From the NCBI GenBank assembly GCA_008632985.1, contig QPGO01000240.1, positions 1 to 64,000 on the forward strand: a stretch of DNA of 64,000 bases. The letters are read 5' to 3'. A program made the translations under genes and the position numbers. Origin of the DNA: Psammoneis japonica. Lineage: Eukaryota. Positions 12,046 through 64,000 of the stretch are shown piece by piece (position 1 is the stretch's first letter; each line of letters starts with the position of its first letter). The notes beneath the pieces were generated by a model. That model did not search any database, had not been told where the DNA came from, and saw nothing but the letters and a program-made list of their open reading frames with translations.

Positions 12046-12599
12046 GATGATGATAGTGGTGGCGGTGGTATTGTAGCGTTATTTAGACCAACAGCTGGTG
12101 GATTGGAATGCAAATCGAACGACAGTGATCAAAGTTCTTCTGTTCCCTCTGCATCCAACGCACTTTTTTCTGTGGCGCTGTGTCGTGTGTGCGCGCGAAT
12201 GATCAGAGGCAAAGTGAACCTATTCGATCTTGAATATCTAATAATTGTAATGTCTTACGAAGCTGAAGGTTGACATATTCAATAGCCTATCGCAATGATA
12301 AGATCTCTTTAGTTCTCAATTTAGATTCTCAACGGATCAAATTTATATGAATAACCTTTGATCACATATTACAGTATAAAAATACTTTATATCTTTACAT
12401 GTGTCACACACATACGGTACCGGTAGGTACATTCACATGATAACACGCGTTCTTCCAAAGTTTCCCGCCGACACAAGTGAGACTCCGACCGAGACCTCCC
12501 TCCAAAAAGGTTGCCAGTCAAACGGAATGACATTTAAGTCAATGGCCATGGCACAATGCCATGGCATCTGTGTAAATGCCATTTTCTTTGTAAGCTTTG

Positions 12600-15500
12600 T
12601 GCGCTTCTGAAACAAATTGTGGTTGTTTTGGAAGTGCTGCGCCAGGTGTGTGGTTTTGTGGAAGCTGCTGCACTCCACCTGGCTTGAGAAAAAAGTGGAA
12701 AAGAAAAGAAAAAACTCTCCTGTTGTCGACGGCTTGTCACAATCCACGCACACCTGCTGCCAGCTGGAGCTCCAGCTGAAAACTCCTCATTGCATTTTCA
12801 GTTTGCTGGTTGCTTGTCCCAGGCACTGGCACAGCATTGCATCATCAACATCACTCTTGGCATTTCACACTCTCATGATTTTGCGCGGGTGTGAGGAGAA
12901 AGCAGGACAGAGCTCTCTCAACAAAAGTCGCTTGACATTGTTTGCTGTCCAGGTGCTGAAGGTCATCAAATGGCTTGATTTTTGTTGCTGAGCTTGTGAG
13001 AAGCCATGCATGGACATGCATCAGAAAAGAGTTGTGGGTCTGCTGTGCACAAAATCATTTGAGCAAAGAGAGTGGCAAAACTCCTCCAAAACAGCCAGAG
13101 GCAGCTGCTGCTGCCATGCTTGCCAGATTGGTGGCAAGGCAAGAAAGCACCAGTGTCTTGCCAAAGAGGTGTGCAGCATTTCAGATGATGAGGCAAGCCA
13201 TTTCTTGAGAACAAAAAAGCTGCTCAAGCAGACACCGCTGATGCATTTTGCAGCTCATCTGGTGCAGAGGGAGCTCCGTGCTGTGCTCTGCATCACCCCC
13301 ACCAGAGGCCAATCAAGTTTTTTGTGCTTGCATGTTGTGGAATGCTCAGGTGTAAATTTGGTGGGAACCAACTGGGCAATGGCTGCCAGGTCCACAATTG
13401 GCTCGGGCAAGTGCGCAGACAGCGGCTGCCAAGTGGGTCAACAGATTTTTGACAAAGCTGTCTGAGATCAGGCTTTGCAGTTCATTTTCATTTCTCTGAA
13501 GAAGAGCAACAAGGTCACACACCTCCTTGTTTGGGGTTGACATGAGCGAAACCAGGTTTGTTTGGTTTTGGAGGTTTGGCTCTCTGAGTTGAAGCATCTC
13601 ATTTGTTTGCACCCCAGCTCAACAACAGCGTCACAATTCTTTGGTGTGGGCACACAACACACACTTGTGACACAAAGTCCTCAGGGGCAAAGGAGGGGTT
13701 GAGGAGGATCTTTTTGTTGGTTTTGCAAGCTGGGCAGTGTGTTCAAAATGACACGTGCATGTGTGCAATGGCAGGTTTTGCTGTGCGTGTGTGCACATGA
13801 TGATGAGAAAGAAGGCCCCCATGCTTGCATGGTGCAAAGGAGTGAAAACAAGAAAGAGTTGCCATTGTGTCATGAGAAACCCAGAGATTCTTGCAAAAGA
13901 GCAGCAAGCAGAAAAACAACCCACATCTGCTGAAACAAAGAGAAGCTGCAAAGTGGCAGAGCAAGCACTTTTTCTCCCTCTCTCAAAAAGTCCAGAGAGA
14001 GGAGTGTGTGTGAGCCACAAACGGAAGAGCTGTGCTGCAACCACACAAGCCTGGGTTCAGTGAAAAGAGAGGGTTGCTCACTTGCTCAACACAGGAGGCA
14101 CACCCAAAGTTTCAGGCAAAGGATGCAAATGAACCACAAGCAGTGCTCTCCATCTTGTTCTTTGAGTTGGGAGTGCACTCTCCAGCCCCCCAAAAGAGGG
14201 CTGGGACTCCATGGGATGTTGGGCTGGCAGAATTCCAAATGCAAGCTCTGCAATGACACACATGCTCACATGCTTGGAGCACATTTGTTTTTGGCTTGCC
14301 CAGGAGGTCTTCCCTTCTGACATTGAAGAAAATGTGCAAAACAGGGAGCAAAAAAATGTTTTGTGCAGGAGAGCACACATGGAAATTTGCCCACACAACA
14401 ACACACTCAATGCATTAAGATCAAAGAATGCTTTTGTTGCAGTTCAGCAGCACAAGGTCCAACCTGCCAACAGAGCTGGAGCAGACATTTGGCTGGTGAG
14501 GGTGGCAGCTCCATGCTCAGGAAATGGAGCACAGAATGGAAGCAGGAGCCTGGGCAGGTGCAGGAGTTGTGCCAGCCTTTGGTCTTGCAATGATGGCAAC
14601 AATCCTTGCTGTCAAAGTTGTGATGACTTTCATTGTTCTTTTCTTCTTCAGTCAGCTCCATGGCCAGGCCATTTCTCAGGAACAGGGATTTGAGAGAAGG
14701 CTTGCCAGATGTGTCTTTGTTCCTTTGCACTGTGAGAGCATTTTGCATCAACATCATTGCTCCATTGGTGCACACATGAGAGAGCCTCACCAACAGGAAG
14801 GTTTGGGGGCAGCTGGCCAAAAAGTGAGGGTGCTCACAGTTGTTGAAGCACAAATCACACACTGACAGCGCAAGGAAGAGGTGTGTGGTGCTTGTCTTGG
14901 GCAGTCATGCTGGGGCACTCGTCAGTTGACAATGGCAAAGAACAGCGCTCAATCTCAGAAAGAAAGAAGAGACCTCTTTGACAGAGGTGGCAGTCATGCC
15001 AATGGACCTTTCTGGAGCTTGAAAGTCTTGGCAAGGTGATCAAAAAGGGAGTCATGCTCCAACAGCAAAATTGGGGTTTGGAGAGCCTTTGTGTGAGGTT
15101 GTCGAAGAAGTCGGCAAGAACGAACATCTTGCCCTTCTGGTTTTGCAGATTGTCAAGTCTTGAGTGGCTGCCATGGGCAAGAGAGACAACTTCTCTGCCC
15201 ACATGCTCTTGTCCATCAACAAAGCCAGTGGCAATCTTGATGTGGTTGGCTGTGGTGGCCATCAAATGGCGAGAGTGGGTGGGGCTTCTTCCAAGTTGCT
15301 CTGCAGGGTTTTCATGATGATGATGAGGAACAGGGAACCACCCTGTCACCCAGGTTCACAAACCAGCCATTTTTTGTTTGCTTCTTTCTGGACTGGCTGC
15401 CAAGAGCTCTTGAGGAAGTGCTGGTCCTGTGGGCAAGACCACCTGGCTGGCTCAGGCTCCACATTGGGAGCCATCAAACATTGCATTGTGCCGCCTGTTG

Positions 15501-15770
15501 CTTGCCGCTGTTTGAGCTTCTGTGGCTGTTGAATGTTCTGTGTGAAAGTCACAGGCAGGTTTTGAGAGTTGCAGGATCAACAATTCTTGAGATGCGCCTT
15601 CCACATGCCAGTGCCACGAGTGCCAAGCGAGTGTGCTGCTGCTGTTTGGTTGTCTGTCAATCGTTGAGTTGATTGATTGGTCGAACACAAGGATGACGTG
15701 TCACCAAAAGCAAGGTCAGTGACCAGTGACAACAGGCAGCACTCAAATGCTCTTGTTGCAGCTGCTGGTG
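12600..15770. other. TpA- and CpG-depleted hypermutated block (degenerate repeat/TE or duplicated DNA)
   Basis: By eye only two TpA (about 13353 and 14416) in about 3.1 kb. CpG is rare and TpG/CpA abundant. All six frames hold short ORFs that are Cys/His/Gln-rich and nearly Tyr-free. Confidence 0.85.
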
Positions 15771-16052
15771 TTGGTTACACTCTATGGCAGATGATGAGAT
15801 TATGTGTGGAAAAGCTGAAAAGATGAGCTTCAGGATAAGTGAAGAAGAAAAGAGCGTGAAACCGCACTTTGCCCACTGTCGCACTGCAAGTAAGTGAGCG
15901 CGCCACTACTGTAAGAATCGCGCTGACGGCTGACGGCTCGTGCTGTGCGCTTCAGCATTCAGCATCTGTGTTGAAGCCATGAAGCAACAACAAGCGGCAC
16001 CGGATTTGACAGCGGTTCAATCCCATTCACTTTACAAAGTGTCACTTTAGAC

Positions 16053-25170: not shown

Positions 25171-25249
25171 CTGAGGCATCGTCTTCTGTCGATCGCATCG
25201 CATTGGCGACCAAGACTTGCTGTCCTGTCGCATGTGCATGCACCTAGAG

Positions 25250-26570
25250 AAGCTCTCTGTCATCTCGTCAACCAGATCCACTTGACCAAATGACCCCCCT
25301 CCTTTCCAAGTCCATCCACAGTCACGGGCAAAATTGTGAAATCAGTCAGACGAAGTGGCGCTGACAAGGATTTGGCTGCCGCAGACGATGACGCGAATTC
25401 AAAAGTCCGAAAGGAGCGAAATGACAATGGGACAGCAAAACAGGGCAAAAACGAGGAAAGAAGCAAAGAGAGTGTGGAGATGGATGTCGGGAGAACAAAA
25501 CACACATGTGCGCAGGTTGATGAGAAACGATTTCATCATGTTTGGGCAGGCTTTGCCATCACAGCTAGAAAGAAGCAACAGCGATTGAAACTTGAAACTC
25601 AATTAGCATCGCACGTGCTTAAAATGAGTGGCAGCAGTGGTGCCAGCTGCAAAGAGCAAGATGAGAAATGCTTCCATGCCCGTCATGTTGCACTCACAAG
25701 ACCAGACTCGGAAGGCGATTGTGTGCCCCAGTTGGATGATTCAGACGCCGAATCATCAGAGTCTTCACCGGTTCCTGAAACAAAAGCTTCGTTGTCAGCA
25801 TGTGCACCAAACGCTGACAAGTGTCATGATGTTGCATTGTTCATCACATTTGACTTGCCACCAACCTTCCAAATGCCCAGCTGCGGAGTTCCGTGCCAGA
25901 CACATTCAGGCTTCAACAAATGAGGGAGCATGCCCCTCACCCACATCAGCATGGACTGCTGAGGACCAATGCATGCCCAGGACATGGATTTGAGTGTGCA
26001 GTTGAACAAGATCACACCCTTGTGCATCAGAATGCTGGTGTGAATCGCGGGAGCCTGCTCATTGTGAAGCTGTTCGAGTTGCGCATCCGTTGCCCCTGTG
26101 CAGTTCTTGAGGTGCCCATCAATCGAATGCGTTCCCTTGTTGTCGCGCATGTCAAAGACTTCAGCCAACTCATCGAGTTTGACCACATCCACAGGCAATC
26201 TGATGTGCACATGGACGAGAGTCAAGAGATGCTCAGCCTTGAGCCTGAGCTTCTTGAGAGACACCTCATCATGTGCCAAGTCGGCAAGCAGGCGTTCCTC
26301 AAAGAGAGGATCTTGTGCTTCCACCTTGGCGTGCTCAAGGTCAGCGGCCATGACGGAGTGGTGCAGACGGTGTGTCTCTTCAAATTCCTTGTCATTGTGA
26401 CTGACAATCAAAGGTTGACCTGATTGAATTCTGGGAGTCATCAATGCCACTTTGCAGCAGCGTGAACCCTTGCCGATGTCTTCCTTCTTGCGCAGGATGG
26501 TGGTCGAAAGGCCAAGGTGCTGAAAGAGCACCAGAAGAAACTCGACACACTCGTGGTTGTCCCAAAACTT
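25250..26570 (-). pseudogene. TpA-depleted block containing a degraded coding sequence of unknown family
   Basis: No TpA seen from about 25625 to 26570. Minus-strand ORF 25824..26531 reads protein-like (DPLFEERLLADLAHDEVSLKKLRLKAEHLL) but has no Tyr and an excess of His. CpG is largely retained. Confidence 0.6.
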
Positions 26571-26890
26571 TAAGTTCTAGCAGCCCATGGTAGTACGGAG
26601 TTGCAATGACAACAAACAACAACTGCTCCCGACATCTTGTGAGCCGTCTTTGGTCATGAAAAGCATCCTTGCCACTGTGTTGGTTTTGACGACCTCAGAT
26701 CTCGCGAACCAATTTCCACCAACTTTAGGCGGTGTTGCTTTTCGGGCTGGCGAGAAACCTGGCCTGAAGATCTTGGCATCGTTCCCTGTTACATGCCAAG
26801 AAATTTCAATTAACACAAGTCCTATCGTTGTCAATTAGATGCGCTCCACTACTAAAATTACCAAATAACATACCCCCATTCCACCGCTCT

Positions 26891-50640: not shown

Positions 50641-50865
50641 AATCAGTCCATGCAAACAGTCGGGCGTTTTCACTCGATACAGTAGCGACGACATGGTGTG
50701 TACACGAATGAATCAAGCATCCCTCCGGATACAACAAGTCTACAAGTTGAGGATCGAAATAGTCTTGGAAGAGTCAAAATCACTTGTTTCTATGTATTTG
50801 TTAGGGAGTAACGGTTTTGTCTTGTGGAGGCCGTTGCATGGGACGGAGCAACTGTCGAGGCTTGT

Positions 50866-51186: not shown

Positions 51187-51635
51187 TGCAATGATAAGGT
51201 CGGCCGTGGTGATTCAAAACAAACGTTGTCTGCAAAAGTGAGCGGTCGTTTGAAACGGCGGTTGCTTCGTTTTGGCGTCTTTGCGTGTAGAAACTGCACC
51301 TACGCGAATTCAGTACTGAAAGCTACGTAAAGTAGGCCCAATCGAGATGCTCTCGTAGCTTTCAGCTTCTTCCATCTAGCTGGTTCCGCAATCTTAATTC
51401 TACAAGTGCAAGGAGAAATCATCGACAATGAGATCGTCACATTGGTGTTGTTGCATGTCGAGGACCTACATACGATGTTTTGGGGCGGAAAATGTCAGTC
51501 TTTTGATTTGTTTTTGATGCAAGTCTACTAGATGAATTCTACAACCTACAAGGTGCACCGCCAAGTCGCGAAGCATTGATACGAAGGTTTTATTCATAAA
51601 TCAAGTCTAGGGGAGAATCGTGGTTTTCGGTAGAG

Positions 51636-52172
51636 CTACAGTCCGATGTTCAATCCATTGCGTGCAAACGATTTTAGGATGGAACTCATTTCGCGACCCT
51701 TCGTTCGTGCTTGTTTCGACATTGATTGCACGGTTTTATTGGGCGGATCATTTTCCTTGGTTGGTGTACTGAATTCATTTTGTTCTTTTTGTCGAGAAGT
51801 TTTACTCGCCGACTCAATAATGCCCCTAACAGTGACGATGAATTGATCGTGTCCCTCGGCGTCTGTCCTTGTGCTTGCGTGTTCGTTGTCCGTGTCGGAG
51901 GATCCGACACCTAGCACTTTGTCGTTCCATCTCTGAAGAAATGGTCGTGGGACGCCATTAAAGTTCCAAGATGGGAGTTGCTTTCCGGACACAACATTAT
52001 CGTGAGGGACGTAGATTGGGTCGTCCACGCAAGCAATTCCCCGCGGAACGTCACAACCACGCACAATAACGTCGCCGTCATTGTTGCGAGAAATAGCATG
52101 TGCCGCAGATTTCCTTTTCAACGTTGCTGCACTCTGATCCATGTCGTTATCCTCTTTCTTCGCTACTTCCAT
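51636..52172 (-). CDS. Hypothetical protein (178 aa)
   Basis: ATG-initiated ORF, divergently oriented from the next gene. No recognised motif. Confidence 0.55.
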   Translation of the reverse strand: MEVAKKEDNDMDQSAATLKRKSAAHAISRNNDGDVIVRGCDVPRGIACVDDPIYVPHDNVVSGKQLPSWNFNGVPRPFLQRWNDKVLGVGSSDTDNEHASTRTDAEGHDQFIVTVRGIIESASKTSRQKEQNEFSTPTKENDPPNKTVQSMSKQARTKGREMSSILKSFARNGLNIGL

Positions 52173-52511
52173 TGTACACGATCAATCTCTAAACGATATG
52201 AATATAGGGCCGTCGTTGCGTTCTCGTTCAGCGAAAAGTGTTGGCTCTCGCTCGGATCGAGATCAAAACTTGGCAGTTGGCAGTTGGTGGGGTTTTGGTT
52301 TGCCCATCGAGCTCCTTTTTATGTTGCCTATTCGAGCTCGAAGATTATTAGCATTTAAGATACGAATAGTTATATAAAGTTCCAACGGACAAATCAATCA
52401 CGCGCTGGCTTCGCGAGCTCTCTGCGGATCTCTTGCTTTTTTCGCGTTGGCTTGCGGTCGCATTCACCATGACAACTGCCTCATCATTTGACATCAAAAT
52501 TGACGGGCACC

Positions 52512-53879
52512 ATGATGTCATCTGACGACGCTGACGATGAAATCCGCCCGTGGGCCGAGTCGGAAGTGGTAATTTATCAGAATGAGCGCTTCTGGGTTGG
52601 AGGGGGCTTTTCAAAATCCGGATTGCTTCCAACAGATCGCCGGCCGTATTCAACGGACGATGGATCCATGTCTTGGAAGACGATGGAGCTTGCGAGTGCT
52701 GCAATGTTGCAAAAGGGGTGGGATTATGTCGATCCAGAGTTTTTACCCCCTGACGATGAAGTGGAGGGAGGTTGGTACTATTCATCGGACTTTTCGTCCA
52801 ATTCTCTCAGGACTGCATCGCAAAGAAGAAGAAAGCTCACAGACTTTGTGCGACGACGCAAATTGATTAGAAAGACAAAATTTGCGCCCGAACAGTTCTT
52901 GCCTTTTGAGGTCTATTCAAAATGTGATCACTGTGATTCTACGGTTACCGAAAAGCTGTCATTAAAAATGCTCGAAACCTTCGCACAAGTTACGCAGCTC
53001 CAAAAAAACAACGCGCAGCACGTGCTCACAGATGCAGTCGCTATGCCTCTGAAAGTGAAAATGATAGAAGCACTTGGAATTGGATCGCCATTGCCCGATG
53101 AGCCTGAAGATCCTTTGGATCGTCTCGAGGCTCTGTACAAGGAGCTAGACGAATTCCCCAAAACGCAGCAGTCTGTCTTGTCCAAAGCATATCATTTGTT
53201 TGAGAATGCAAGTGACGAAGAAGCACACCAAACGTATATATCTAAAAGATACTTTCCGAAGGAAGAGCGTGACGCAATCGCAAGCCTAGTTGTACGCCAT
53301 GTTGATCCAGAATACAAGCTTCACTGTGATAAGAGTTTGTGTGGAGATCATTGCGAGTTCTATCCGGTTGCTTGCACAAACAACCGCTGTGACCGAGTCA
53401 TATCACAGAAACACCTTTCTGAACATGATAACATTTGTGGCTTCAAAATAATATCATGCCCTGATGGATGCGGAGACCAGTTCCCTCGTTGCAAGCAGGT
53501 GGTTCATCTCCAGGAAGCCTGTTCTCTCCGCCAAGTTTGCTGCCCATTTCAAAGTATTGGCTGTACAGTCATGACGCAGGCAAAGGATGCAGAAAAGCAC
53601 ATGGTGGAGAATTCGAGCGGTCACCTACTAATGGCAATGAATCGTATGCTCGAGTACCAAACCTTTATGATTCAACTGAACGGCCGGATGCAAGAACTGG
53701 AAAAGGAAAACGAGGCTCTGAAAAAACAAATCGAAGCAGACAACGACAGACACATGAAGAGTGTTACCGGTGTCGAATCAAATCTGAAATCGCTTACGAA
53801 AAAGGTGTCAGCTCTGGACAGCCATTGCAAGTCAGAATTCAAAAAGATTCATCGGCAGGAGCGAAAACACATGAAGTAG
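52512..53879 (+). CDS. DysF (dysferlin/Pex24-like) domain + TRAF-type zinc fingers + coiled coil
   Basis: DysF: IYQNER..LLPTDRRPYS..GW..GWYYSSDF..DFVRRRK. TRAF-type fingers: CEFYPVACTNNRC..LSEHDNICGFKIISCPDGC..HLQEACSLRQVCCPFQSIGC..EKHM. Confidence 0.8.
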   Translation: MMSSDDADDEIRPWAESEVVIYQNERFWVGGGFSKSGLLPTDRRPYSTDDGSMSWKTMELASAAMLQKGWDYVDPEFLPPDDEVEGGWYYSSDFSSNSLRTASQRRRKLTDFVRRRKLIRKTKFAPEQFLPFEVYSKCDHCDSTVTEKLSLKMLETFAQVTQLQKNNAQHVLTDAVAMPLKVKMIEALGIGSPLPDEPEDPLDRLEALYKELDEFPKTQQSVLSKAYHLFENASDEEAHQTYISKRYFPKEERDAIASLVVRHVDPEYKLHCDKSLCGDHCEFYPVACTNNRCDRVISQKHLSEHDNICGFKIISCPDGCGDQFPRCKQVVHLQEACSLRQVCCPFQSIGCTVMTQAKDAEKHMVENSSGHLLMAMNRMLEYQTFMIQLNGRMQELEKENEALKKQIEADNDRHMKSVTGVESNLKSLTKKVSALDSHCKSEFKKIHRQERKHMK

Positions 53880-54799
53880 TTTTGAATCCGCCGGCAAGGT
53901 CGTCGATCGCTTCTTTTCGCAGTCGACTTTTCTCAGCTTGATAGGTGTTGGCATCAAGTCAGATAGACCACGAAACAGTAAACTCTAGATAGAAGTTCCT
54001 TTTTTCGAGAAAATTTGATCGAGCGGGACTTGGAGATAACCATTTGCTGCCTCAAGTATTTTACGTCGTTTTTCATATCATGCCATGGTACGGAAGTGAG
54101 ACTATAATCGAAAAGGCTATACTGTGGAGAACCGCTAGCATGTTATCTTGCGCTGCGTTGTTTCAACTCAAATATGGTAACAATAACCATACCTAGCTTG
54201 GGAATGTTATTGTTATTGTTCACGTTATCATCACGATTCGACTGTCACGTGTCGCCTGCAACAATATGCTCTCACCTTGTCAATCCACGATGCTGACTTT
54301 CGCAGATGCGGCAGTGGTGACCGTGCGCTTAGATTTTGAAATGTGAACAGACAAGAGAGTAACCTGGGGGGTGATTTTGTGATGACAACAAACAACAAAC
54401 ACAGCTCTAAAAAAAAAAAAAAAAATCACTATGGAAAATTGAATAGTTTTACTACATGGCATCGATTGAAAAACATACAATTCGTTATGTCCTATATCAC
54501 TAGTACAGTACTGTACATATTAGTCGATAAATAAGCCACATAGTGTACATTCTATATCATAAAATGCTCTGAATAGAGAATAATGTTCTCTTTTTAGGAT
54601 AGAGGAACTTTCTTCGCGCGATTTTTGTTTGAAAGCAGCGCGTGCCATCAAACAAAAACAAGAATCAATCGCATTTTGGATTTGCGATGACCCTTCTCCC
54701 TTCTCAAAAACATGAGGCGTGTCGACCTTTCCTGTCTTGACCAAAAACAGAAACAAGGAAACTCCATCACTCTTTTTCCTTAGAGCGACTATCGAAGCC

Positions 54800-56017
54800 A
54801 TGTCGGTTGTCTGGAGAAACGATGAATTAGTTGCTACAGAAGAGTTGGAAGCCGCATACACACGCAAGCAACGATTACAATTAGAATTGTACTTTCGAAG
54901 CAGGGGAGAGGAGCAAGCTACGGTAATCGCTGATGCACTTCACAACAGTCCTCCTCAAGAATTGATTCTTCGTGATAGAGAGTTGGGAGACAATGGAGTT
55001 CGAGTACTGGTGAATGGTTTACTGCGCACGAAGTCTCGAGACGTAACACTTGAGCTTTCCGGCAACGCCATTCGGTTCCAAGGAGCATTCATGCTAGGTG
55101 TGCTTTTGGCAGGAAGCACCACTTTGAAAGTCCTTCGGTTGCGCGAAAATCAGATAGGATCATTTGGAATCACTTCGTTCGCGCCTCTACTCGCTGAGAA
55201 TGCTTGCCTTGCAGAGCTTGTTCTAAGTCAGAACCAAATTGATGATGACGGGGCTGCGGCACTTGGTGCCGCCCTTGCGGTCAACCAGACTTTGAAAAAC
55301 TTGCAATTGGGTCGCAATCGGATTTCAGATAATGGAGTAGGCTCGATTGCAAACGGGCTCCGAAACAACACTGGACTTGCGGAGCTGGGCTTGTGTCGAA
55401 ATCGTATCGGACCTCAAGGTTGCTTTGCATTGGAAATGCTGTTACGAATCAACCGTACCTTGACTCATCTGCAGCTCTATGGCAATGAAATTGGAAATGA
55501 TGGTCTAACTACAATCGCAAATGGGCTTGCACACAACAGGACTTTGAAATTTCTAGGGGTGGGACAGAACGGGATTGGCGATGACGGAGCAGCTTCCGCA
55601 GCTGCTTGTTTACAGACGTCGGCGCTGGCGAGTCTCTGTTTAGTAAGTAACCGGATAGGCGACGATGGAACCGTTTCACTCGCCCAAGCGCTTCGACATG
55701 AACCATTGCTCGCAAACCTGCGTTTGAATGACAATCGAATCGGTTCAACGGGTGCGACTGCGTTGGCCTCGTGTCTAAGAGAAACGAATACGATCCTCGA
55801 GCACGTTGAAATTGAACAAAACCAGTTCGACAACATGTCGTTCCCATCGCAAGAAATTCAATTTTACACCGAGTTAAATAGAAATGGCCGAGGTTTGCTT
55901 CGATACCCGGATCAGCCTGTTGCCATGTGGCCGTTCGTTCTGCACAGGTGTTCACAGCCAGCATTGCAATTCTACTTTTTGCGAGAAAACCCAGACATTT
56001 TCAAACGAGACCAGTGA
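54800..56017 (+). CDS. RI-like (NLRC3-type) leucine-rich-repeat protein with a diatom-type C-terminal domain
   Basis: About ten 28-aa repeats LxxLxLxxNxIGDDGAxALAxAL. Tail EIQFYTELNRNGRGLL..MWPFVL..YFLRENPDIF. Confidence 0.9.
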   Translation: MSVVWRNDELVATEELEAAYTRKQRLQLELYFRSRGEEQATVIADALHNSPPQELILRDRELGDNGVRVLVNGLLRTKSRDVTLELSGNAIRFQGAFMLGVLLAGSTTLKVLRLRENQIGSFGITSFAPLLAENACLAELVLSQNQIDDDGAAALGAALAVNQTLKNLQLGRNRISDNGVGSIANGLRNNTGLAELGLCRNRIGPQGCFALEMLLRINRTLTHLQLYGNEIGNDGLTTIANGLAHNRTLKFLGVGQNGIGDDGAASAAACLQTSALASLCLVSNRIGDDGTVSLAQALRHEPLLANLRLNDNRIGSTGATALASCLRETNTILEHVEIEQNQFDNMSFPSQEIQFYTELNRNGRGLLRYPDQPVAMWPFVLHRCSQPALQFYFLRENPDIFKRDQ

Positions 56018-56199
56018 GGTGCTTCGCAACACTATGTGCTGCAAAAAAATTCTCGGGAACTCAAAGCTAGAGAATAGGTCTCGGAATTTGGGAGTTTGGA
56101 GTGAAGTTTGGTGTATGATGGCGGATACAATGATGTCTATCTCGTGATCCCACGCAGAGATTCACCAAAGACTTGCTATGGTGTGCACATTAAGCATTA

Positions 56200-56775
56200 C
56201 TATGATTCAGTTAACTCAAACTTTTCAGCGTGCTGATCCATAAGACGTTGTCTTTCCTGACGCTGAACCTCTTCAACGTCTGACTTTATCGAATGCGCCG
56301 CTAGAACGGTCCAACTCATTCGTCCCATGCCTCCTTTTCGAACCCATTCATCCATAGTCATGGTACCACCGGCGGTCTTTCTGTAAACAATCTCATCTTC
56401 TTGCTGTTGCTGCTCAAGTCGCCTTTCTTCCGTTGCTTCTATAATTGAGGGCGGTACGTGGATTGATCTTTGTGACCACAGAGCATGTGCCAAAAGTCGA
56501 GGATAGCGCTCGGCAAATAATAGTGCTTCTCTTTTCGATGCCATCCAATGAGCGCAGAGGCCAGCGGAATAACCCACCCAAGATCCACAAAGAAAAGGCA
56601 CCAATGGTCCTGTCGACAAGGCAATCGCTCCAACCTGTCCACATACCATTCCTAAAGTCATGCTACTCAATGTGCAGTACACCAGAGTCTCTCCCACAAA
56701 CCGAGCGCGAGCTGGAATGTTCACCCCTGATAACCTCACCAGTGACCCTATTCCTTCGAATTGAGATTCGTCCAT
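56200..56775 (-). CDS. Hypothetical membrane protein
   Basis: ATG at 56775. Gly-rich hydrophobic hairpin followed by a charged C-terminus. Confidence 0.65.
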   Translation of the reverse strand: MDESQFEGIGSLVRLSGVNIPARARFVGETLVYCTLSSMTLGMVCGQVGAIALSTGPLVPFLCGSWVGYSAGLCAHWMASKREALLFAERYPRLLAHALWSQRSIHVPPSIIEATEERRLEQQQQEDEIVYRKTAGGTMTMDEWVRKGGMGRMSWTVLAAHSIKSDVEEVQRQERQRLMDQHAEKFELTES

Positions 56776-57098
56776 CTTTATATATACCACCCCTCACTTC
56801 GAGAGTACCATACGATGCTGTCTAATAGTGTTGGGGACAATCGCTTTATGGCATCTATTGAGCATTGATCGAATCACACACAGAAAATGCTGTTGCGCTT
56901 ATTGCGCGATCTTTTCGCGGATTTTTCGAAATAGTAAATATTTCTTCAATCACGAATATATTTCATGATTCGATGAACACTCTGGTTCGTCTCAGATCAA
57001 ACTTCCGACCAACGAATTGGAAGGAGTTTCATGTTTCATTCGTTGCACTGCACACTGGCAGCAAAGAAAGCCGGTGTTTCGTTCATCTGTTGCTTAAA

Positions 57099-58059
57099 AT
57101 GGTGGCATTAGCACCGGACGCGGACACATCAGCCGTGCCAGAATCAGACAAAGCGTGCAAGCGAACCATTTTAAAAAGATGCGTTCGTCGTATAGTGGTA
57201 CTTCCGCGCTTCCTGAGCGCATCTACGTCTCATGATGCTTGGTTGCGAGGAAAACCATCCTTACGGCCCTTCCGAACACACTGCGGAAATGTTCCTGTCC
57301 ATTATCTGTAGAACATTGGAACAGAAACAGGAGGAATGTGATTGGATCGTAACAATTTCCGTGTACAGAGTCCAGCTGTTTGATTACCCTCAATCGGAGG
57401 AGGAGTGGGACAGCTACGATGGAATTTTGTTGCCAGGATCTTTATCGGGAGCTTACGAAAAGAAGGAATGGATAGAAAAGCTTTGTAACGTTATCCCCAC
57501 GGAAATACATGGCAAGAGTCGCAAAACATTGGGTGTTTGCTTTGGTCACCAGGTGTACGCTCATTCATTCTCCGGTGGCCAAGCTACCAAATGCCCCGCA
57601 GGACTTCAGACGGGACGACGCACTGTCTCCTTGACAGCAGAAGCAGCAAAAATCTTTGCAGAAGAAAGCGCTCTCGAATTGCTCTTTACACACGGCGACA
57701 TGGTGCAGCGCCTACCCGATTGCGCTGTTGCATTGGGAGAAACGCAAGCTGTCCCCGTTCAAGCTGCAGCATATTTTAGATCTGCACGGGAGAAAGAACT
57801 GTTTTTGTCGACAAATGAAGAACAGAAAAGACCACGACCAATTGCCATTACCTTTCAGGCTCATCCTGAATACGCTGATCAGGAACTAGGGGTGAACCAA
57901 ACACTGAAACCAATTTTGGAGAAGTTTGTAAAAGGCGGGGAAATGACTCTAGAAGAAGCGGAATCGACACAGCAGGATGTGTCAGACAATTATGCCACGG
58001 TAGAGAATCATAGTTTAGATGTCATGAGGGATGTTGGAAGGATATTTGGGTGGTTCTAG
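57099..58059 (+). CDS. Class I glutamine amidotransferase-like protein (frame break near 57216-57231)
   Basis: YDGILLPGS, nucleophile elbow LGVCFGHQ, HGDMV, and FQAHPE (Cys-His-Glu triad). Confidence 0.85.
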
Positions 58060-58419
58060 GAACAGTCCGTGATCGAGGGAAAAAAGGCTACAATTGCCAT
58101 GATGATTGATTTTCATCCATTCCATTGGCACAGACACTTATGCCGCATCCAGCAATAGAATTCTTAGTGTTGTTTTAGCGAGTTTGTTCCCCCCAGCTCT
58201 CTACTCTAGCTAGACAGCCGCAACGCACATGTTTGATGTGAATGGCACCGCTCTCAACTCTCTTCACAAGTCACAGGTGAGCAGTGGTTATACTAAGTGC
58301 AGAGTTAAAGAGCCCATTGGGAATGTAAGGGAACAGCAGAAGGAGGCACAGAAGCAGCTGTAACAGCGGAATAGCAGAAGGGATGTACAACACAGCATGC
58401 AGGGCATTTAGCAAAAGGG

Positions 58420-61130
58420 GCAGGAGATCAGTCAGTGCAGAGGGAGGAGGCAAAACAAAGAGCATGCATGGAAAGATGATGCACAAGGTTGCACCCAAGT
58501 GTTTGAACAGCCCATTGGGAGGGAGAAGCAGTGTGATGGGGGCTGCCAAAGCAGTTGCTGGAGAGACAGTTCCAGGCAAAATCAGCAGAGCAGAAGGAAG
58601 GAGGGTGGAAGGGGAGGTTGGGGCACAGAGAAAGGCAGAAAAAGAAGCACCTGAGTTGCGAACAGCAGAGGAGGAAGACCAGGGAGGCTTGGGTGCAGGT
58701 GGGTGAGAGCACAGAGCCAAAGAGAAATCAATGGCAAAAGAAGCCAAGGCCACCAAGATGGTCAAAAGTGAAGGGAACCAACAAGAGAGGAAGGAAGAAC
58801 AGACAGGTGCAGCAGCTTGCACTGGGTGGCAATGTGGCATGGGCATCAGATGCAAGCTGAGAGCTCAGGAAGTGGCAGGGGAGGGAGCAAAGAGGGAGGC
58901 TGGTCAATGAGGAGAGAAGAGATGGCAAAGAGCCCTGCACATTGAAGGAAGGAGGATCAGCAAGAGCAGCAGCAGCAACCACATCCTGCCAATGTCATGG
59001 CAGAGATGGCATGCCAAGCTGGAAAGAGCTGCTGTGGAACCTGTGCCAACAACACCGTGCAAGGCACAGACGGTTCTGGCAGGCAATGCAGCACGAATGC
59101 CACTGAAGTTGAGGGATGTGCAGCTGCTCACCTGACAGAGGGCAGGGCTCACAGCAGCTCAAAAGATCCAAGGACATTCTCATTGTTGCAAGAAAGCCCA
59201 AAAGCAAGTGAGAAAACACCCGCTGTGGCAGTCATGCACTCCATTGGAGTCCCTGATGCCGGGTCAGCAAGAACAAGAGCAGCTGTCATGATGTTCTGTG
59301 CCCCCACATTTCCTTGAAAAAAGTGCTCAAGCTCTCTGCTTCTGCACATGATGTTGGCAAAAGAAAGGTCACTTGAGCAACTCACCTCTTGCCATGCAGC
59401 CTGCTGTGCTTGTGCAAAGAGAAACTCATCAGATGTGCAGCCACCACTGCCTTGCCAGCAAAAAAAAAACTCAAACCCAAATGTTGAGTGCTTTTGCACC
59501 TTTGCCCAGCAACACCATTGCAGGCTCCAACCCACACTTCCAGCGCACCCTGCTGGGGGTGCAGCAGAAGTTTTCATGCAATTGGTCGCTTGGTGCACCA
59601 CTTTGCAGAGTGGCACACACCAGAGACAACCAGTTGAGATGAATTGCACAGAAATGAGACTGTTGTTTTCTTTTTAAGAGGGTGTGCCAGAGCACCCAAA
59701 CTGCCACAGCAAAGGAGGACAATCACACCAAGAAGAGGGCGCAAAGTCAGCACAAACTCTGAAAGAAAAACCTTGCTTCCAAGGATGAGCATTGTCTTCA
59801 ACAAAGACTGACTCTGGGTTTCACAGTTGTGTGTGCCAAAACAAAAACAAACCATTTGCCACTCAGAGGAGTGGCAAGGTTGGCAGGCCAACAGGGAGAA
59901 GATGGGGTGTTCAGAACTTGCAGGTGTGAAATGAGGAGCCTTGATGATGGTGATGAGAAGGACATTGGAAGCAACATTGTTCTCATGCAGAATTGATGTT
60001 GAATCTTGCACAGGTGTGCAAATCTGCACAGCAAATGGATGGTTGTCAGGTGGCGCCAATGGCTCATCCAAATGAGCACTTGCAAGCACCACAGCAGGGG
60101 CAGAGCTGTCACCACGTGAGGCAAAGAAGAAGGACTTGAGCAGCAGGCAGGAGAAAAAGAAACTGTTGTGGGCTGACGCCGGGCATGGATGGAAGATGGA
60201 AGATGATCACATCAAAGACATTGTGGTCATTGGGGTGGGCATTTCTGAAACACATGGAACTTGCACTGGGTCCTGTGCAGAAAATGCACCAAATCTGCAA
60301 AAAATTGCTCAGTTGGACAACAAGCATGCAAGCCACAAGGCATCAATGCCAGTTGTTTTTCACTGAAAATTGTTGTGCATTGTGCTGAAATGAGGGTGCG
60401 CCAATGACAGAAATGGTCAAAAGGGTGTCAGGGGAGGACACAGCAAAATGCCATCTGAAAAGGGTGATGTCAGGAAGTGTCTCGCCAGCAGAGCCCATGT
60501 GCTGCAGCTTTGCGGCCAAGGAGAGAAGCTCCCAACCTCTGGAGCACCTGTGGCACCTGGCTTCCAAGCTGGTGACAGGGTGGCCACAACCAACAGGGGG
60601 GCACTTCTCTGTTGGCAGGCTTTGAACGGGGCATGTTGACACCCAGATGCACTCGAAAATCCTGCAGCTGAGAGGGCATGTGNNNNNNNNNNNNNNNNNN
60701 NNNNNNNNNNNNNNNNNNNNNNNNNNNNNNNNNNNNNNNNNNNNNNNNNNNNNNNNNNNNNNNNNNNNNNNNNNNNNNNNNNNNNNNNNNNNNNNNNNNN
60801 NNNNNNNNNNNNNNNNNNNNNNNNNNNNNNNNNNNNNNNNNNNNNNNNNNNNNNNNNNNNNNNNNNNNNNNNNNNNNNNNNNNNNNNNNNNNNNNNNNNT
60901 GTTCCTTTCAAGTCACACTTTGCAGCTGTTGTGGGGCAGAGCACCGCATCCCTCCACCACCAGCAGTTGGGCCAGATCAAAGTGATGAAAGCATGGCATC
61001 TCACCACTTCATTGACCCAGACAGCTGGCAAAAAAAAAAAGAGCTCTCTCCTGAAGAGAAAAGGAGTGGCATTTGAAGTGTTGACTTTTCATTGCACAGG
61101 TGACATCATCTTTGTAAAAACTGCCAGTTG
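58420..61130. other. TpA- and CpG-depleted hypermutated block (unrecognisable degenerate repeat/TE DNA)
   Basis: TpA falls off over 58270-58420 and is then nearly absent (seen at about 59675 and 61115). CpG is rare. Many spurious Cys/His/Gln-rich ORFs. Confidence 0.85.
60683..60899. other. Assembly gap (217 N)
   Basis: Run of N characters. Confidence 1.
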
Positions 61131-61315
61131 TTTTGGAAAAACCGTCATCGTCATCAGCTGCACTGTGTGCAGAACTGCAAATGCCAATGTCAGAAGAAGT
61201 GCGCACGGCTTTCCCAAAGACCATTTCCGTGCGCGTCTCGAACCCTGTCTTTTTTGTCGTTCGCTCAAGAGATTCTGGATTCACATTGCTTTTTCTCAAC
61301 AAGACAAAACCCAAA

Positions 61316-63306
61316 ATGAGAAAGAAAAATGAAGCCAATGCACGAATGATTGTCGGATGCGTCGGATTGGTCTCTTGCATGGTGAGAGAGGCTTCGGCTT
61401 TCACCGCCACAGACCCAAGAACTTTTGTTGGGAGAGCGATGCTGCCGGCACCCTGCCAGCGAACCACAGAGATGCGCCGGTCTTACATTGGCGCGAAGCC
61501 AACCCGCGAAGCTGTTGAGGAGGCAGTCGGACAAAGCGACAAAGTCAATCCAAACCCCCAGGATCATGGGGTGTTGCAAGGCTTGCCGCACAAGAGTCCT
61601 GCCGATTGCAGCAGCTGCGCCTGCCAAGTGCAAGACGAGAAGCTCCAAGCAAAGCTAGAGGTCTCACTGAGCCGCGTGCATGTCCTCTCTTCCTCATGGA
61701 AAAGGCAGCTGAGACATTGGGGGACCAGCTCCACATCCTTCGATTGGGAAAGTTGCCGTCAATGGTGCAATCGCGGAGACAAAGGAGAAGTTGGTTATTT
61801 TGGGCACCGGCTGGGGAGCTGCTGCCTTGCTGAGCGAGATCGACAATGATCGCTACGACATCATGGTTGTCAGTCCACGGAACTGCTTTTTGTTCACTCC
61901 CATGCTCGCAGGTGCCAGCGCAGGCACTGTGGACGTTCGCAGCATTGCCCAACCTATTCGAGAGGCCGTTGATTTGTTTGAAAAAGAACAGTGTTCTTTC
62001 CAGAACATTGATGCTCACTGCACACGCTCTTTGCCATTCTGTTTCTCCCAGTTCAATCGACAAGCCAACACTTGGAGGCAGCCGCATCCTCTGTCGACAC
62101 CGACACTCGAATTGTAAATTGCCAAGGGGTGCAATGCCACGAGGAATGCGAGATTACAGACATTGAAGTCAAGTGTGATCGGCTTGTGGTGGCGGTCGGA
62201 GCGAGTGCCAACACATTTGGCATCCCCGGTGTCGAGGAGCACTGCCTCTTCCTGAAGCAGATTGGTGATGCAAGGCACATTCGTCGCAAGATTGTCAGTT
62301 TGTTTGAAAGAGCGAATTTTCCCAGACAGTCGGAACAAGAGCGTCGCAAACTGTTGACCTTTGCCGTGATTGGTGCTGGTCCAACTGGCGTTGAATTCAC
62401 AGCGGAGCTTCGAGACTTTGTCAAACAAGATGGACCAAAGTGCTGTCCCCAGTCACTCAAAGACGTTCAAATCAAGGTCATTGAAGCAACACCAGTGATT
62501 CTGAGGCCATTTGATGAGAGCTTGCGAGAAACAGCAATGAACGTGCTTACTCGCGGCATCAACATTGAGGACCCAGCTCGCAGAAGTTTATTCCCAGATG
62601 AATTGACTGAGCTGGTCCTCAACAAGCCTGTCAAAGAAGTGACCACCGACACAATTGATCTTGCAGATGGCTCAGAAACACCTCATGGCTTGGCAGCATG
62701 GGCCGGCAGTGTCGGACCTTTGCCCATTGCACCAGACATTGTTGAGGCGGTTGGTGGCGGACAAGTTGAAGCACAAGAAACGGCTCGCGGAAAGCTTGCG
62801 GCAGATCCGTGGCTTCGAGCCGTGGATGGCAAAGGCAGCATCTTTGCATTGGGTGACTGCGCCTGCATGCAAATGGCTTGCTTGCCGAGCACCGCCCAAG
62901 TCGCTGCTCAAGAAGGCGAGTTCCTTGCTCACGTTTTGTCCAAGGCCAACCTCAGTGCAGAGCACAGTGACGAGGGTGTCATGTTGCCGCCCAAACGTGA
63001 CCCGGAGAAACCCATGAGCTCAATGGATGTGATTGCTTCCTTTGGCGTCCAGACGGATGAGTGCATGGCTCCGTTCCAGTTCCTCGACATGGGCATTTTG
63101 GCATGTGCTGGTGGCTTTTCAGCGCTTGCGCAGGTTCAGGTGACACCAGACGAAAAGACATGCGTCAAGGCCCTGGAACCGTTGGATTTGGTCCATGGAG
63201 AAGCGCGCATTTGATGAAACAAGCATCCATGAGGAATCGCGCTCTTGTGGCCATTGACTGGGTCAAGTCACGTCTCTTTGGGCGTGACATTGCCGCCATC
63301 GACTAG
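61316..63306 (+). pseudogene. Hypermutated copy of a plastid-targeted type II NAD(P)H dehydrogenase (NDH-2)
   Basis: Signal peptide plus ASAF motif (61391-61402). Motifs VILGTGWG, SPRNcFLFTPML, cDRLVVAVGA, TFGIPGV, VIGAGPTGVEF, FALGDCA, PSTAQVAAQEG, WRSAhL, LFGRDI. Probable intron about 61965-62051 with a GC donor, several frameshifts, and conserved Tyr replaced by Cys/His. Confidence 0.9.
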
Positions 63307-64000
63307 ATGCCGCAACTGCTGATTGCATCATGAAAGGAACAAGAAGAACGGCAGTTTTGTGTGACTTGCTTTTTTGGGGTGGTGCAGAAAGACAAGCGGC
63401 ACGGGATTGCCGTCGGCGATTTTCACCCATGTTTGCATGGAAATGTGTTTGGAATGAAGTGAAGCTTGCCACCAGGGAATAAGCAGCGGCTTTCAAGAGC
63501 AGTTTCATCAGTTGGACTTGTGCATGTTGTGCGCATGCGTGTCCGTGTCATGCAGAATGTAACCTTGTGCTGCACACACGAGAAAAGTTGGATGAAAAGA
63601 GAAAACGCAATGCAGCACACAGCGCTCGTGCACAGCAGGCCTTGAAAAGCTCCTGGATGGCCGATTGGGCCATGCTCCCGGGCGGCGCCAAATCGCTCAA
63701 ATCGCTTGAACAGCTCCAATCGTCACTTCAGCAGTGGGCTCCTGTTCGCCGCGATGTTCTCATGCAGCCGACCAGCTCCATCTGATTGCCAATGATGCAG
63801 AGCCATCTGATCAGGTCAAGCAACACATGTCCATTGAGACCACTCATTGCAAGTTCGCAAAGTCAACAGGACATGGAAATCCTTGGCGCAGCACTCCAGT
63901 CTCAGCAGCACAGCAGCATGCTTGTGCAACTCGCGGTGCATTTTCAAGATTGCAGCAAGAGCCTTGACTGTCCTTTGTGGTTCTTTTGAGCATGGAAGAA

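Follow-up and report, generated by a model that had tools for sequence, protein, structure and literature searches.

How can a gene copy come to lack one dinucleotide almost entirely? In the window (the whole 64,000-nucleotide stretch of diatom DNA that was analysed) a copy of the gene for type II NADH dehydrogenase (NDH-2) at 61316-63306 contains 10 TpA where base composition predicts 107.5, an observed/expected ratio (o/e) of 0.093; at the normal TA density of the window (3.68% of dinucleotides) about 73 would be expected. A first-pass annotation had described this copy as strongly TpA-poor, with no TpA from about 62600 to 63300, and as having kept its CpGs. All three statements hold: the TpA-free stretch runs from 62589 to 63304 (715 nt, the window-wide median TpA spacing being 16 nt), and in 61316-63306 CpG stands at an o/e of 0.76, with CA at 1.48, TG at 1.47 and AA at 1.14. 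The answer that we favour, and to which we would give roughly three chances in four, is that a dead NDH-2 duplicate lies inside a domain in which a confined transition process rewrote nearly every 5'-TpA-3'.

The family assignment rests on 604 matches, the top ones being diatom NDH-2 proteins with PF07992 and PF22366 (best E=3e-154, at most 66% identity). The coding pieces located by tblastn together span the full length of the orthologues (Table 1). The intron was placed between ..IRE and FNRQAN.., where the relative P0004 has a read-through insertion. Conserved NDH-2 columns are altered at 42 of 235 places, the median among orthologues being 3.7%, and these changes together with the frame breaks mark the copy as a pseudogene. 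From its sequence it appears to be a diatom gene that was duplicated at the level of DNA and is now dead, having kept its intron and lost four single bases.

Table 1. Features of the window discussed in the text (strand given as a dot where a feature has none).
Feature	Position	Strand	Basis and remarks
Domain A	12536..15775	.	island between genes, devoid of TpA and CpG
Domain B	25246..26570	.	TpA-free, CpG halved; spans the body of one gene and sequence 3' of it
Second disrupted gene copy	25824..26588	-	conserved family starting MGCWN...; phmmer, alignment, sequence
Domain C	58410..64000	.	TpA-free; continues past window end; holds repeat part, N gap and NDH-2 pseudogene
Part C1 of domain C	58330..60682	.	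without TpA and CpG; multi-copy-family behaviour
Assembly gap	60683..60899	.	217 N
NDH-2 pseudogene copy	61316..63306	+	type II NADH dehydrogenase; tblastn of four orthologues, translation
NDH-2 coding pieces	61316-61660, 61663-61749, 61767-61964, 62052-62069, 62072-63172, 63175-63303	+	tblastn frames 2, 1, 0, 0, 2, 1
Frame break 1	61661..61662	+	one codon reduced to two bases
Frame break 2	61726..61727	+	extra T of other copy (CTA) absent here; tblastn places frame change at 61731-61764
Retained intron	61965..62051	+	87 nt, in frame, no TpA
Frame break 3	62070..62071	+	AC where relatives carry Tyr codon (..ANY/LEAAA..)
Frame break 4	63173..63174	+	one codon reduced to two bases; reads do not corroborate
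NDH-2 stop codon	63304-63306	+	TAG

The locus had been called a gene copy, and a second, transcribed NDH-2 copy is indeed visible in public sequence contigs, here termed X1 (a public DNA run) and X2. A third set, X3, yielded no contig that could be placed on the window, and no RNA source was listed as containing the NDH-2 stretch. The X1 contigs are unspliced through introns and hence represent DNA. An X2 contig over 62050-63358 shows 161 differing letters and 2 gaps relative to the window, and several of its variants also occur in X1 contigs (the second copy being seen through a listing of 40 of 551 differing places). This contig starts to fit at 62050, close to the 3' end of the intron, and 130 nt of it precede that point. 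The contigs also bear on two of the frame breaks. Behind 61726 an additional T is present at the full depth of X2 (8.84 of 8.84) and at a depth of 67.3 out of 107.7 in X1, whose other sequence matches the window in having no T; as the other copy would read CTA here, the window lacks the T of a TpA. Behind 63171 both X1 contigs that span frame break 4 have an extra T (90.6 of 90.6), so that this break may stem from the assembly or reflect variation between strains.

It might be supposed that the differences between X2 and the window arose through RNA, either because RNA editing 'corrects' the DNA and the X2 contig is the edited transcript, or because a dsRNA transcript hyper-edited by an ADAR-like enzyme was reverse-transcribed and inserted. 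ADAR has the appropriate preference for a 5' U, as noted in the part of a preprint drawn on here (Mettrop et al., bioRxiv 10.64898/2026.01.13.699255). However, several X2-type variants, including the extra T at 61726, are present in the X1 DNA, which speaks against the X2 contig being an edited transcript of this locus, and we regard any such route as extremely unlikely. A processed retrocopy formed after RNA hyper-editing was ruled out, since the intron is kept and both non-coding flanks are equally TpA-free.

The X1 contigs likewise bear on whether the missing TpA could be a sequencing or assembly artefact, with a modified base miscalled or a polishing error producing a consensus devoid of TpA. 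An N gap adjoins the NDH-2 gene, one frame break lacks support in the public contigs, and differences between the window and these contigs are denser inside the domain than outside. Against this, the separately built X1 contigs match the TpA-free sequence at 58331-60300, 61169-61618 and 63482-64000 at a depth of 56-60, the same as on the normal flanks; because the run may come from the source sample of the window itself, this support is not fully independent. Strand-dependent misreading would mix TG and CA and break contigs, whereas one X1 contig of 1443 nt differs from the window by only 4 letters, and open reading frames of 1131, 1526 and 982 codons are intact elsewhere in the window. An artefact therefore seems very improbable.

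The domain also appears to be diverging faster than its surroundings. Comparison of the window with near-identical X1 contigs gave 19 differences in 2955 nt within the domain and 16 in 12906 nt outside, a 5-8-fold higher density (p=2.4e-6). The in-domain differences listed, 22 in number, are mostly CpG transitions; at a single one, 63021, do the reads carry a TpA, and in two further cases a TG doublet faces a CA. With so few TpA among the listed differences, mutation of TpA is not shown to be ongoing; most TpA targets are already spent.

The depletion does not end with the coding sequence. TA occurs once in the 5' flank (60900-61315), where 29.8 would be expected, twice in the 3' flank (63307-64000), where 41.3 would be, and not at all in the intron, unlike two introns of one gene in a normal region with 9 TA in 82 nt and 6 TA in 107 nt. 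From this it follows that the process acts on DNA and regionally. The first-pass annotation had thus seen the loss correctly within the gene but had overlooked the flanks, the intron, the extension of the domain from about 58410, two further domains and the four frame breaks in the gene. Thirteen TpA survive in 60900-64000. In a set of 21 surviving TpA, T before (p=0.02) and A after (p=0.006) were enriched, the sample being too small for inference. Nor is the depletion typical of NDH-2 genes in general: in a comparison with at least 64 orthologous loci (240 kb), TA o/e in 1-kb stretches went no lower than 0.31 in those listed. These loci came from a metagenome scan in which the best match listed was about 54% identical; the closest relative, P0001 (66%), was not among them.

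Three domains, A, B and C, contain every one of the nine longest intervals without TpA in the window (715-1440 nt). Domain A has 0.15% TA, 1.02% CG and 22.19% TG+CA, with 0-3 TA and 1-9 CG per 500 bp and TpA-free intervals of up to 1360, 1063 and 762 nt. Domain B holds 3 TpA, has a TpA-free interval of 951 nt and contains 0.30% TA and 3.5% CG. At the start of domain C, TpA of ordinary spacing end with the one at 58409, beyond which 0-4 TpA per 500 bp are found instead of the 13-34 expected, and the TA share is 0.04% in 58430-60682 and 0.42% in 60900-64000. In part C1 CG has fallen to 0.80% from 5.80% in normal DNA, and TG+CA has risen to 21.98% from 14.49%. Whereas TA thus drops to 0.04-0.42% in the four domain parts, the sum of TA, CG, TG and CA, which is 23.97% in normal DNA, remains at 22.8-25.4%: in every domain the gain of TG+CA about equals the loss of TA+CG, CG being lost in two of them (A and C1). 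Such a constant sum of pyrimidine-purine steps indicates conversion, not avoidance of TpA.

Conversion proceeded evenly on both strands, as had been proposed from the NDH-2 codons, with TG:CA counts of 370:349, 107:109, 226:269 and 290:302 in the four parts. Runs tests for strand-coordinated tracts of TG or CA were non-significant in all domains (z -1.58 to 1.16), a weak test because native TG and CA dilute such tracts. The proposed confinement to a region was also borne out, at all three domains: adjacent 500-bp bins step from 22-33 TpA to 0-3, and the edges are sharp within about 100-200 nt.

These edges bear on the view that no targeting took place and that a genome-wide bias towards TA>TG/CA mutation let old pseudogenes or junk drift to equilibrium. 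Normal parts of the window are already at a TA o/e of about 0.5-0.6, and the two genes that can be recognised inside the domains are both broken, as drift would have it. But drift of this kind does not readily produce such sharp borders, and adjoining introns and spacers are rich in TA (9 TA in the 82-nt intron mentioned above; 33-48 per 500 bp at 12001, 7001 and 48501). Furthermore, at conserved NDH-2 columns the divergence that involves neither TA nor CG is only twice that of the orthologues, while 89-99% of TA is gone. We consider an untargeted bias very unlikely.

Part C1 looks like a member of a multi-copy family. X1 contigs end loose at 58300-58362, near its start; many contigs match it with 85-95% likeness, and the summed word depth reaches 1101, against about 58 on the flanks, although depth is not the same as copy number. 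Two near-identical X1 contigs, at depths of 57.7 and 60.2, span 58331-60300. Blastn of each domain against the whole window found no homology between domains, and the count of seeds after collapsing to purines and pyrimidines was not above that of a control region. A Pfam search with 28 ORFs of domains A and C1 (16 in A) found no family, a homologue search with the ORF 14858-15355 of domain A found none, and neither search revealed a protein of a transposon or a virus in these two domains, so that the case for their being foreign or repeated DNA is a partial one.

The multi-copy look of C1, and the fact that hypermutable regions in the alga Bigelowiella natans are described in the part of the preprint used here as integrated viruses, could suggest that the domains were acquired from a donor, viral or otherwise, which avoids TA (and CG); alternatively, TA might be counter-selected in transcripts. 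Yet NDH-2 and the gene in domain B are of host type, and their nearest relatives are normal in their content of Tyr and TA. Frame breaks and the disappearance of invariant Tyr show decay in place, and introns and flanks are affected as well. Foreign origin or selection is accordingly a highly improbable explanation.

The gene in domain B shows the same pattern independently of NDH-2. A phmmer search gave 14 matches (best E=2.8e-45, 44% identity over 232 residues); a Pfam search with these relatives found no family. Codon 4 is TAG (26579-26577) where the relatives have Trp. Over 233 aligned columns the copy is without Tyr, while each of 11 relatives has 1-8, and all three columns with a Tyr majority have His (CAT or CAC). 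The open reading frame contains 1 TA, with 44 expected.

In NDH-2 itself the direction and the context of the changes are directly visible. Every example cited in the first-pass annotation of Tyr replaced by Cys or His, and of Val or Leu replaced by Ala or Pro, was found again with its codon. At 14 columns with a Tyr majority the window has Cys 7 times, His 3 times, and Tyr, Val, Asp and Phe once each, whereas 120 orthologues (1370 residues) have Tyr 1156, Phe 134, His 48, Cys 2 and others 30 times. The excess of Cys in the window copy is significant (Fisher p=6e-14). Tyr is absent from all 450 aligned columns of the window copy, compared with 1.4-3.3% in the orthologues.

An excess of TA>TG/CA changes was also found when conserved columns were compared with those of orthologous loci. 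Residue changes explicable by a single such step occupy 11 of 170 conserved columns, against 24 of 5384 in 31 orthologous loci (odds ratio 15, p=3.5e-9), and make up 11 of 35 deviations in the window but 24 of 367 in the orthologous loci. With the best of these loci about 54% identical, the tests were made at the codon level at conserved columns. As regards the claimed TpA context, seven of the eight changes of A>G type at first codon positions are preceded by T. Third codon positions agree: T stands there in 2 of 86 codons before codons that start with A but in 89 of 280 elsewhere, and C in 45 of 86 and 61 of 280, respectively. A region-confined, strand-symmetric process from TpA to TpG/CpA, the reading put forward in the first-pass annotation, is supported by these observations.

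The process probably worked as follows. Within a domain a transition process turned nearly each 5'-TpA-3' into TpG or CpA, the strand being picked at random. Elsewhere in the 64-kb window the same process would have given rise to two or more further domains with sharp borders, one of them with a disrupted gene copy. In parts which look older or repeated, CpG would be converted to TpG/CpA by a second, slower process, the deamination of 5-methylcytosine in silenced DNA; the loss of CpG is most simply read as such a separate event.

As for the chemistry, we infer that an enzyme deaminates adenine to inosine where a T stands 5' of it in duplex DNA; a TadA/ADAT2-like deaminase would be a candidate. 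The same signature could, however, arise by other means: the T of TpA might be modified (for example by TET/JBP-type hydroxylation) or might mispair with G, giving T>C, or error-prone repair might act in silent chromatin. TA>CA and TA>TG are complementary, so A>G and T>C look alike in the sequence, and two of the four single-base losses drop the T of an inferred TpA (61726 and 62070), which could reflect excision of damaged bases. The B. natans preprint, the one experimental precedent considered here, puts forward adenine deamination with an ADAT2-like candidate as a hypothesis. We judge these other chemistries improbable.

Targets would probably be chosen for being repeated, duplicated or silenced, which suggests a genome defence that resembles fungal repeat-induced point mutation (RIP) but changes bases in the reverse direction. 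In its fullest form such a defence would recognise duplicated and repeated DNA, including copies of host genes, and deaminate TpA on both strands until none was left, with CpG decay following. The appearance of the same signature de novo in a rhizarian alga means that the defence would be old and common to the SAR supergroup, and that it would include a natural enzyme editing adenine in double-stranded DNA. This extended scheme is offered tentatively, and we think it rather unlikely to be right in all its parts.

If the favoured reading is correct, it has several consequences. Our literature search found one report of targeted A/T-to-G/C chromosomal hypermutation, a chlorarachniophyte preprint of 2026 of which parts are used here. 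Its occurrence in a diatom as well would mean that more than a curiosity of one lineage is involved, would display the end state of the process, domains without any TpA, and would add duplicated host genes to viruses as targets, which provides the link to the logic of fungal RIP. A natural activity that alters adenine in the TpA context of duplex DNA would be relevant to base editing. Finally, a TpA-free stretch with an excess of TG/CA and with Tyr changed to Cys or His could serve in annotation as a marker of silenced or dead algal DNA.

How does the process compare with known systems? Fungal RIP changes C to T at CpA, making TpA from CpA/TpG in duplicated DNA. Region-confined transitions on both strands, a dinucleotide context, killed genes and sharp borders are shared with the diatom domains, but the base change is the opposite: the dinucleotide that RIP creates is here destroyed, and CpA/TpG are enriched. 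RIP is restricted to duplicated sequence, and in the diatom NDH-2 was seen to have a second copy and C1 to have many similar contigs. Duplication as trigger, premeiotic timing in the sexual phase and a DNMT-like enzyme (RID/DIM-2) are further features of RIP; the likeness here rests on the sequence pattern.

Restriction by deaminases (APOBEC3 on retroviral cDNA, ADAR on dsRNA) is likewise a nearest-neighbour-biased hypermutation, and enzymes of the ADAR and TadA types are known to prefer a 5' U/T. It acts, however, on single-stranded cDNA or on RNA and leaves strand-biased tracts, whereas here a chromosomal intron and flanks are affected, evenly on both strands. Decay of CpG by deamination of 5-methylcytosine resembles the loss of CG with matching gain of TG/CA in domains A and C1, and CpG transitions dominate the listed in-domain differences between the window and public contigs. 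It does not account for the loss of TpA, which is faster and took place without CpG loss in the NDH-2 part.

For diatoms, in which the first-pass annotation was aware of no such system, our literature search for TpA-erasing hypermutation found no report; outside diatoms the same signature has been described. In mutation-accumulation lines of B. natans, 231 of 302 mutations fell in two integrated viral regions; 230 of these 231 were A>G or T>C, all on TpA, and the genome contains 124 clusters of windows poor in TpA and rich in CpA+TpG (Mettrop et al., bioRxiv 10.64898/2026.01.13.699255; statements on this preprint refer to the parts used here). The authors also refer to amphioxus and trypanosomes, in which ADAT2 acts on DNA. 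The hosts differ, a stramenopile here and a chlorarachniophyte there, and so does the kind of evidence: new mutations were observed in B. natans, while the diatom window displays the end state alone. Two of the diatom targets are disrupted copies of host genes, one with a transcribed second copy, and two domains have also lost CpG and have no recognised viral genes, unlike the regions described in the preprint. Erasure is nearly complete in the diatom domains (TpA frequency 0.0004-0.0042, the TpA-poor coding class of B. natans having a mean of 0.0018), whereas the NCLDV region of B. natans keeps 3.3% TpA. In both organisms, nevertheless, TpA is the only target, TpG or CpA results according to the strand, the changes are confined to regions which may be silent or foreign, some coding sequences retain almost no TpA, and a lasting footprint poor in TpA and rich in CpA+TpG is left behind.

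By homology search, the DNA between 61316 and 63306 codes for a protein related to the type II NADH dehydrogenases (NDH-2) of diatoms. Its longest frame had 604 matches, the top one a metagenome protein (66% identity), with 51-54% identity to named diatoms. Together with the intact neighbouring purple acid phosphatase gene (top match 60% identity; named diatoms 43-55%), these low values indicate a diatom-type alga without a close named relative in the database. The NDH-2 copy had 10 TpA compared with 107.5 expected from base composition (observed/expected, o/e, 0.093) and none between 62589 and 63304, while CpG was kept (o/e 0.76), CA and TG were raised (1.48 and 1.47) and AA survived (1.14). 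This agrees with the first-pass annotation, which had reported from the sequence alone a TpA-poor copy, TpA-free from about 62600 to 63300, with CpG and AA retained.

Features located in the window
Feature	Position	Strand	Basis or remark
Domain A	about 12536-15775		TpA per 500-bp bin
Domain B	about 25246-26570		TpA per 500-bp bin
Domain C	58410 to window end		TpA per 500-bp bin
Domain B gene copy	25824-26588 (frame 25827-26576)	minus	homologues
NDH-2 piece 1	61316-61660		tblastn
NDH-2 piece 2	61663-61749		tblastn
NDH-2 piece 3	61767-61964		tblastn
NDH-2 intron	61965-62051		87 nt; site of a read-through insertion in the relative P0004
NDH-2 piece 4	62052-62069		tblastn
NDH-2 piece 5	62072-63172		tblastn
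NDH-2 piece 6	63175-63303		tblastn; followed by TAG
X1 TpA-free match	58331-59771		4 other letters
X1 TpA-free match	59760-60300		3 other letters
X1 TpA-free match	61169-61618		3 other letters
X1 TpA-free match	63482-64000		9 other letters

The encoded protein carries the same signature. Tyrosine amounted to 0 in 450 aligned columns, compared with 1.4-3.3% in 120 orthologues. At the 14 Tyr-majority columns the copy showed Cys 7, His 3 and Tyr, Val, Asp and Phe 1 each, whereas the orthologues had Cys in 2 and His in 48 of 1370 cases (p=6e-14 for Cys). The copy deviated at 42 of 235 columns conserved to at least 80% (orthologues: median 3.7%, maximum 20.9%). For a codon-level comparison 32 single-match loci were chosen from 64 listed NDH-2 loci; one was removed because its match length was not divisible by three or it had an internal stop, leaving 31. 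In the large exon, each departure from a conserved column was assigned to the single-base step explaining it. The window had 35 deviations in 170 columns (TA>TG or TA>CA 11, CG>CA 4, other transitions 6, transversions 6, multi-step 8); the pooled orthologous loci had 367 in 5384, 24 of them TA-type and 4 CG-type. Per column, the rate in the window was thus 15-fold that of the orthologues for TA-type change (p=3.5e-9) and 32-fold for CG-type change (p=5e-5), but only twofold for all remaining change (p=0.01), which supports the proposal that conserved residues had been altered through TA->TG or TA->CA steps. The TpA context likewise held: T preceded seven of the eight first-position A>G-type replacements (Thr>Ala 4, Ile>Val 2, Lys>Glu 1, Ser>Gly 1; p=4e-4). 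Third positions were T in 2 of 86 codons before A-starting codons compared with 89 of 280 before others, and C in 45 of 86 compared with 61 of 280 (p=5e-10). Functional NDH-2 genes lack this pattern: across the 64 listed loci (240 kb) TA o/e was 0.31 in the lowest 1-kb stretch, with a per-locus median of 0.64.

The gene model, built by tblastn with four orthologues, consists of six pieces and contains four frame changes, each with one base missing (61661-61662, 61726, 62070-62071 and 63173-63174). Other genes in the window have frames unbroken over 1131, 1526 and 982 codons, so the assembly is not full of indels in general. Contigs from a public DNA data set (X1) and one from a second run (X2) carry an extra T behind 61726, which mends that break and would read CTA; of the X1 depth there, 40 of 108 lack it, like the window. 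The break at 63173 is uncorroborated, since both X1 contigs over it carry an extra T. Two of the four losses take the T of a presumed TpA (CTA in the other copy at 61726; a Tyr codon in relatives at 62070-62071), only a hint that mutation here may occasionally remove the base it hits. The retained intron opens with GCCGTT (61965-61970) and not with GT: perhaps the donor site was destroyed, or it may lie 3 nt downstream, adding one residue.

The depletion is a property of the domain, not of the gene. The 5' flank (60900-61315) had 1 TpA against 29.8 expected, the 3' flank (63307-64000) 2 against 41.3, and the intron none, whereas introns of 82 and 107 nt in a gene from a normal region, deduced from contig skips, had 9 and 6. 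The kept intron and the affected flanks contradict an origin of the copy by reverse transcription of edited RNA. In 500-bp bins three blocks (domains A to C) had 0-4 TpA and the remaining bins 6-48. Of all intervals without TpA, the nine longest (715-1440 nt; the top one spans an N gap) were inside these domains, the median TpA spacing being 16 nt. Three short spacers are very TA-rich (7001-7500, 12001-12500 and 48501-49000, with 45, 33 and 48 TpA per 500 bp), and one adjoins domain A directly, making a sharp border. Such TA-rich introns and spacers beside the domains, together with the sharp domain edges, contradict an untargeted bias across the genome; the process is region-confined, as had been suggested.

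CpG was also lost in parts: it made up 1.02% of dinucleotides in domain A, 0.80% in the left part of domain C (58430-60682), 3.5% in domain B and 4.81% in the NDH-2 part, compared with 5.80% in normal DNA. The sum of TA, CG, TG and CA stayed constant (23.36, 25.4, 22.82 and 24.32% in the four blocks, 23.97% normal) while TG plus CA rose from 14.49% to 19.1-22.2%, which implies conversion at pyrimidine-purine steps rather than avoidance or foreign composition. Because TG was about equal to CA, without clustering in runs, both strands were hit, as the first-pass annotation had held, and site by site. The 21 TpA surviving in 12540-15775, 25500-26570 and 58410-64000 were enriched in TTA/TAA context (T before in 9 of 21 against 20% normally, p=0.02; A after in 10 against 21%, p=0.006), which may reflect a flanking-base preference of the process. 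A minus-strand frame in domain A (14407-14904) has a Cys/His cluster with faint likeness to a retroviral-type zinc knuckle, for which no database support was found; it may be the trace of a degraded retroelement.

X1 contained 0.70 of the sampled words from 60900-64000. Its contigs, placed on 44001-64000, were nearly identical to the window at a word depth of 56-60 in normal and TpA-free DNA alike, so that TpA-free sequence is present in reads at single-copy depth. An artefact is contradicted by these separate public contigs, long and consistent, though X1 may be the sample behind the window assembly. X1 contigs end loose at 58300-58362, and the last TpA before domain C (58409) lies just inside that border. 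Contigs of 85-95% likeness stack on 58.0-60.7 kb (summed depth up to 1101, not a copy number), which suggests that the left part of domain C belongs to a multi-copy family.

X2 derives from the same sample and is labelled 'DNA?'. One of its contigs, on 45445-48137, leaves out 46405-46486 and 47291-47397, both with CT..AC ends, in a subtilase-like gene on the minus strand; X2 thus behaves like RNA, and the skips are introns of 82 and 107 nt. Another (1862 nt) fits 62050-63358, starting at an exon border, with 2 gaps and 161 letters that differ. Since several of its variants (62324, 63021, 63030, 63353 and the extra T behind 61726) also occur in X1 DNA contigs, RNA editing is not the cause. X1 depth across NDH-2 was 104-133, where some 58 is usual. 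Most simply, these data point to a second, transcribed copy about 88% identical to that in the window, in line with the earlier assumption of a duplicated gene.

The domain appears to be diverging even now: window and near-identical X1 contigs differed at 19 of 2955 nt inside it and 16 of 12906 nt outside (p=2.4e-6). Among 22 differing places listed inside (40 of 551 being listed, so that context counts are lower bounds), 12 make or remove CpG by transition, one puts TpA in the reads and four form two doublets, 63521-63522 and 63530-63531, where the window has TG and the contig CA. Such doublets would arise if a single ancestral TpA (or CpG) had changed in opposite ways in two lineages or haplotypes.

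Domain B holds another disrupted gene copy. Searched against a library with 1.84 billion representatives, its frame matched 14 homologues (top E=2.8e-45, 44% identity over 232 residues); the family has no Pfam model. Proteins of this family begin MGCWN.(S/T)FWDNDEC, and longer members have a Cys-rich C-terminal part. The copy begins ATG GGC TGC TAG where 11 of 11 aligned relatives have Met-Gly/Cys-Cys/Ile-Trp; with TAG in place of Trp it is stopped at codon 4. Tyr is absent from its 233 aligned columns (relatives have 1-8), His (CAT or CAC) stands at all three Tyr-majority columns, and the frame has 1 TpA against 44 expected; several further deviations are of the CpG>CpA/TpG type. The loss of invariant Tyr here and in NDH-2, both host-type genes, contradicts a foreign origin of the TpA-free DNA.

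A DNA-level, domain-confined process has thus converted TpA to TpG/CpA on both strands, accompanied in some parts by CpG-to-TpG/CpA conversion; among the DNA affected are disrupted gene copies and, probably, a repeat. The original observation is confirmed and extended, and its interpretation as region-confined TpA hypermutation supported. The chemistry is probably adenine deamination in 5'-T context; thymine modification, though less likely, would leave the same footprint in sequence. Targets may be picked for being duplicated, repeated or silenced.

With TpA lost and TpG/CpA gained, the base change is the reverse of that of RIP, as the first-pass annotation had noted, and the process is therefore not RIP. 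The annotation also knew of no such system characterised in diatoms, where full-text searches (diatom/stramenopile, RIP, dinucleotides, transposable elements) found no report of TpA hypermutation. One directly relevant paper was found, on another alga (Mettrop et al., bioRxiv 10.64898/2026.01.13.699255). In that study, mutation-accumulation lines of Bigelowiella natans had 302 single-nucleotide mutations, 231 of which fell in integrated giant-virus and virophage regions, and 230 of these 231 were A>G or T>C, all on TpA; the genome has 124 clusters of TpA-poor, CpA- and TpG-rich windows, and in 324 of its coding sequences TpA frequency averages 0.0018. An ADAT2-like deaminase is the enzyme its authors propose, and they liken the process to RIP. 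The TpA signature is the same as in the window. Unlike the system as described there, the window shows a diatom host, near-complete erasure, co-located CpG loss and disruption in copies of ordinary host genes, one of which has a transcribed twin. The diatom domains are thus a further case of a very recently described kind, whose signature had already been published from another alga.
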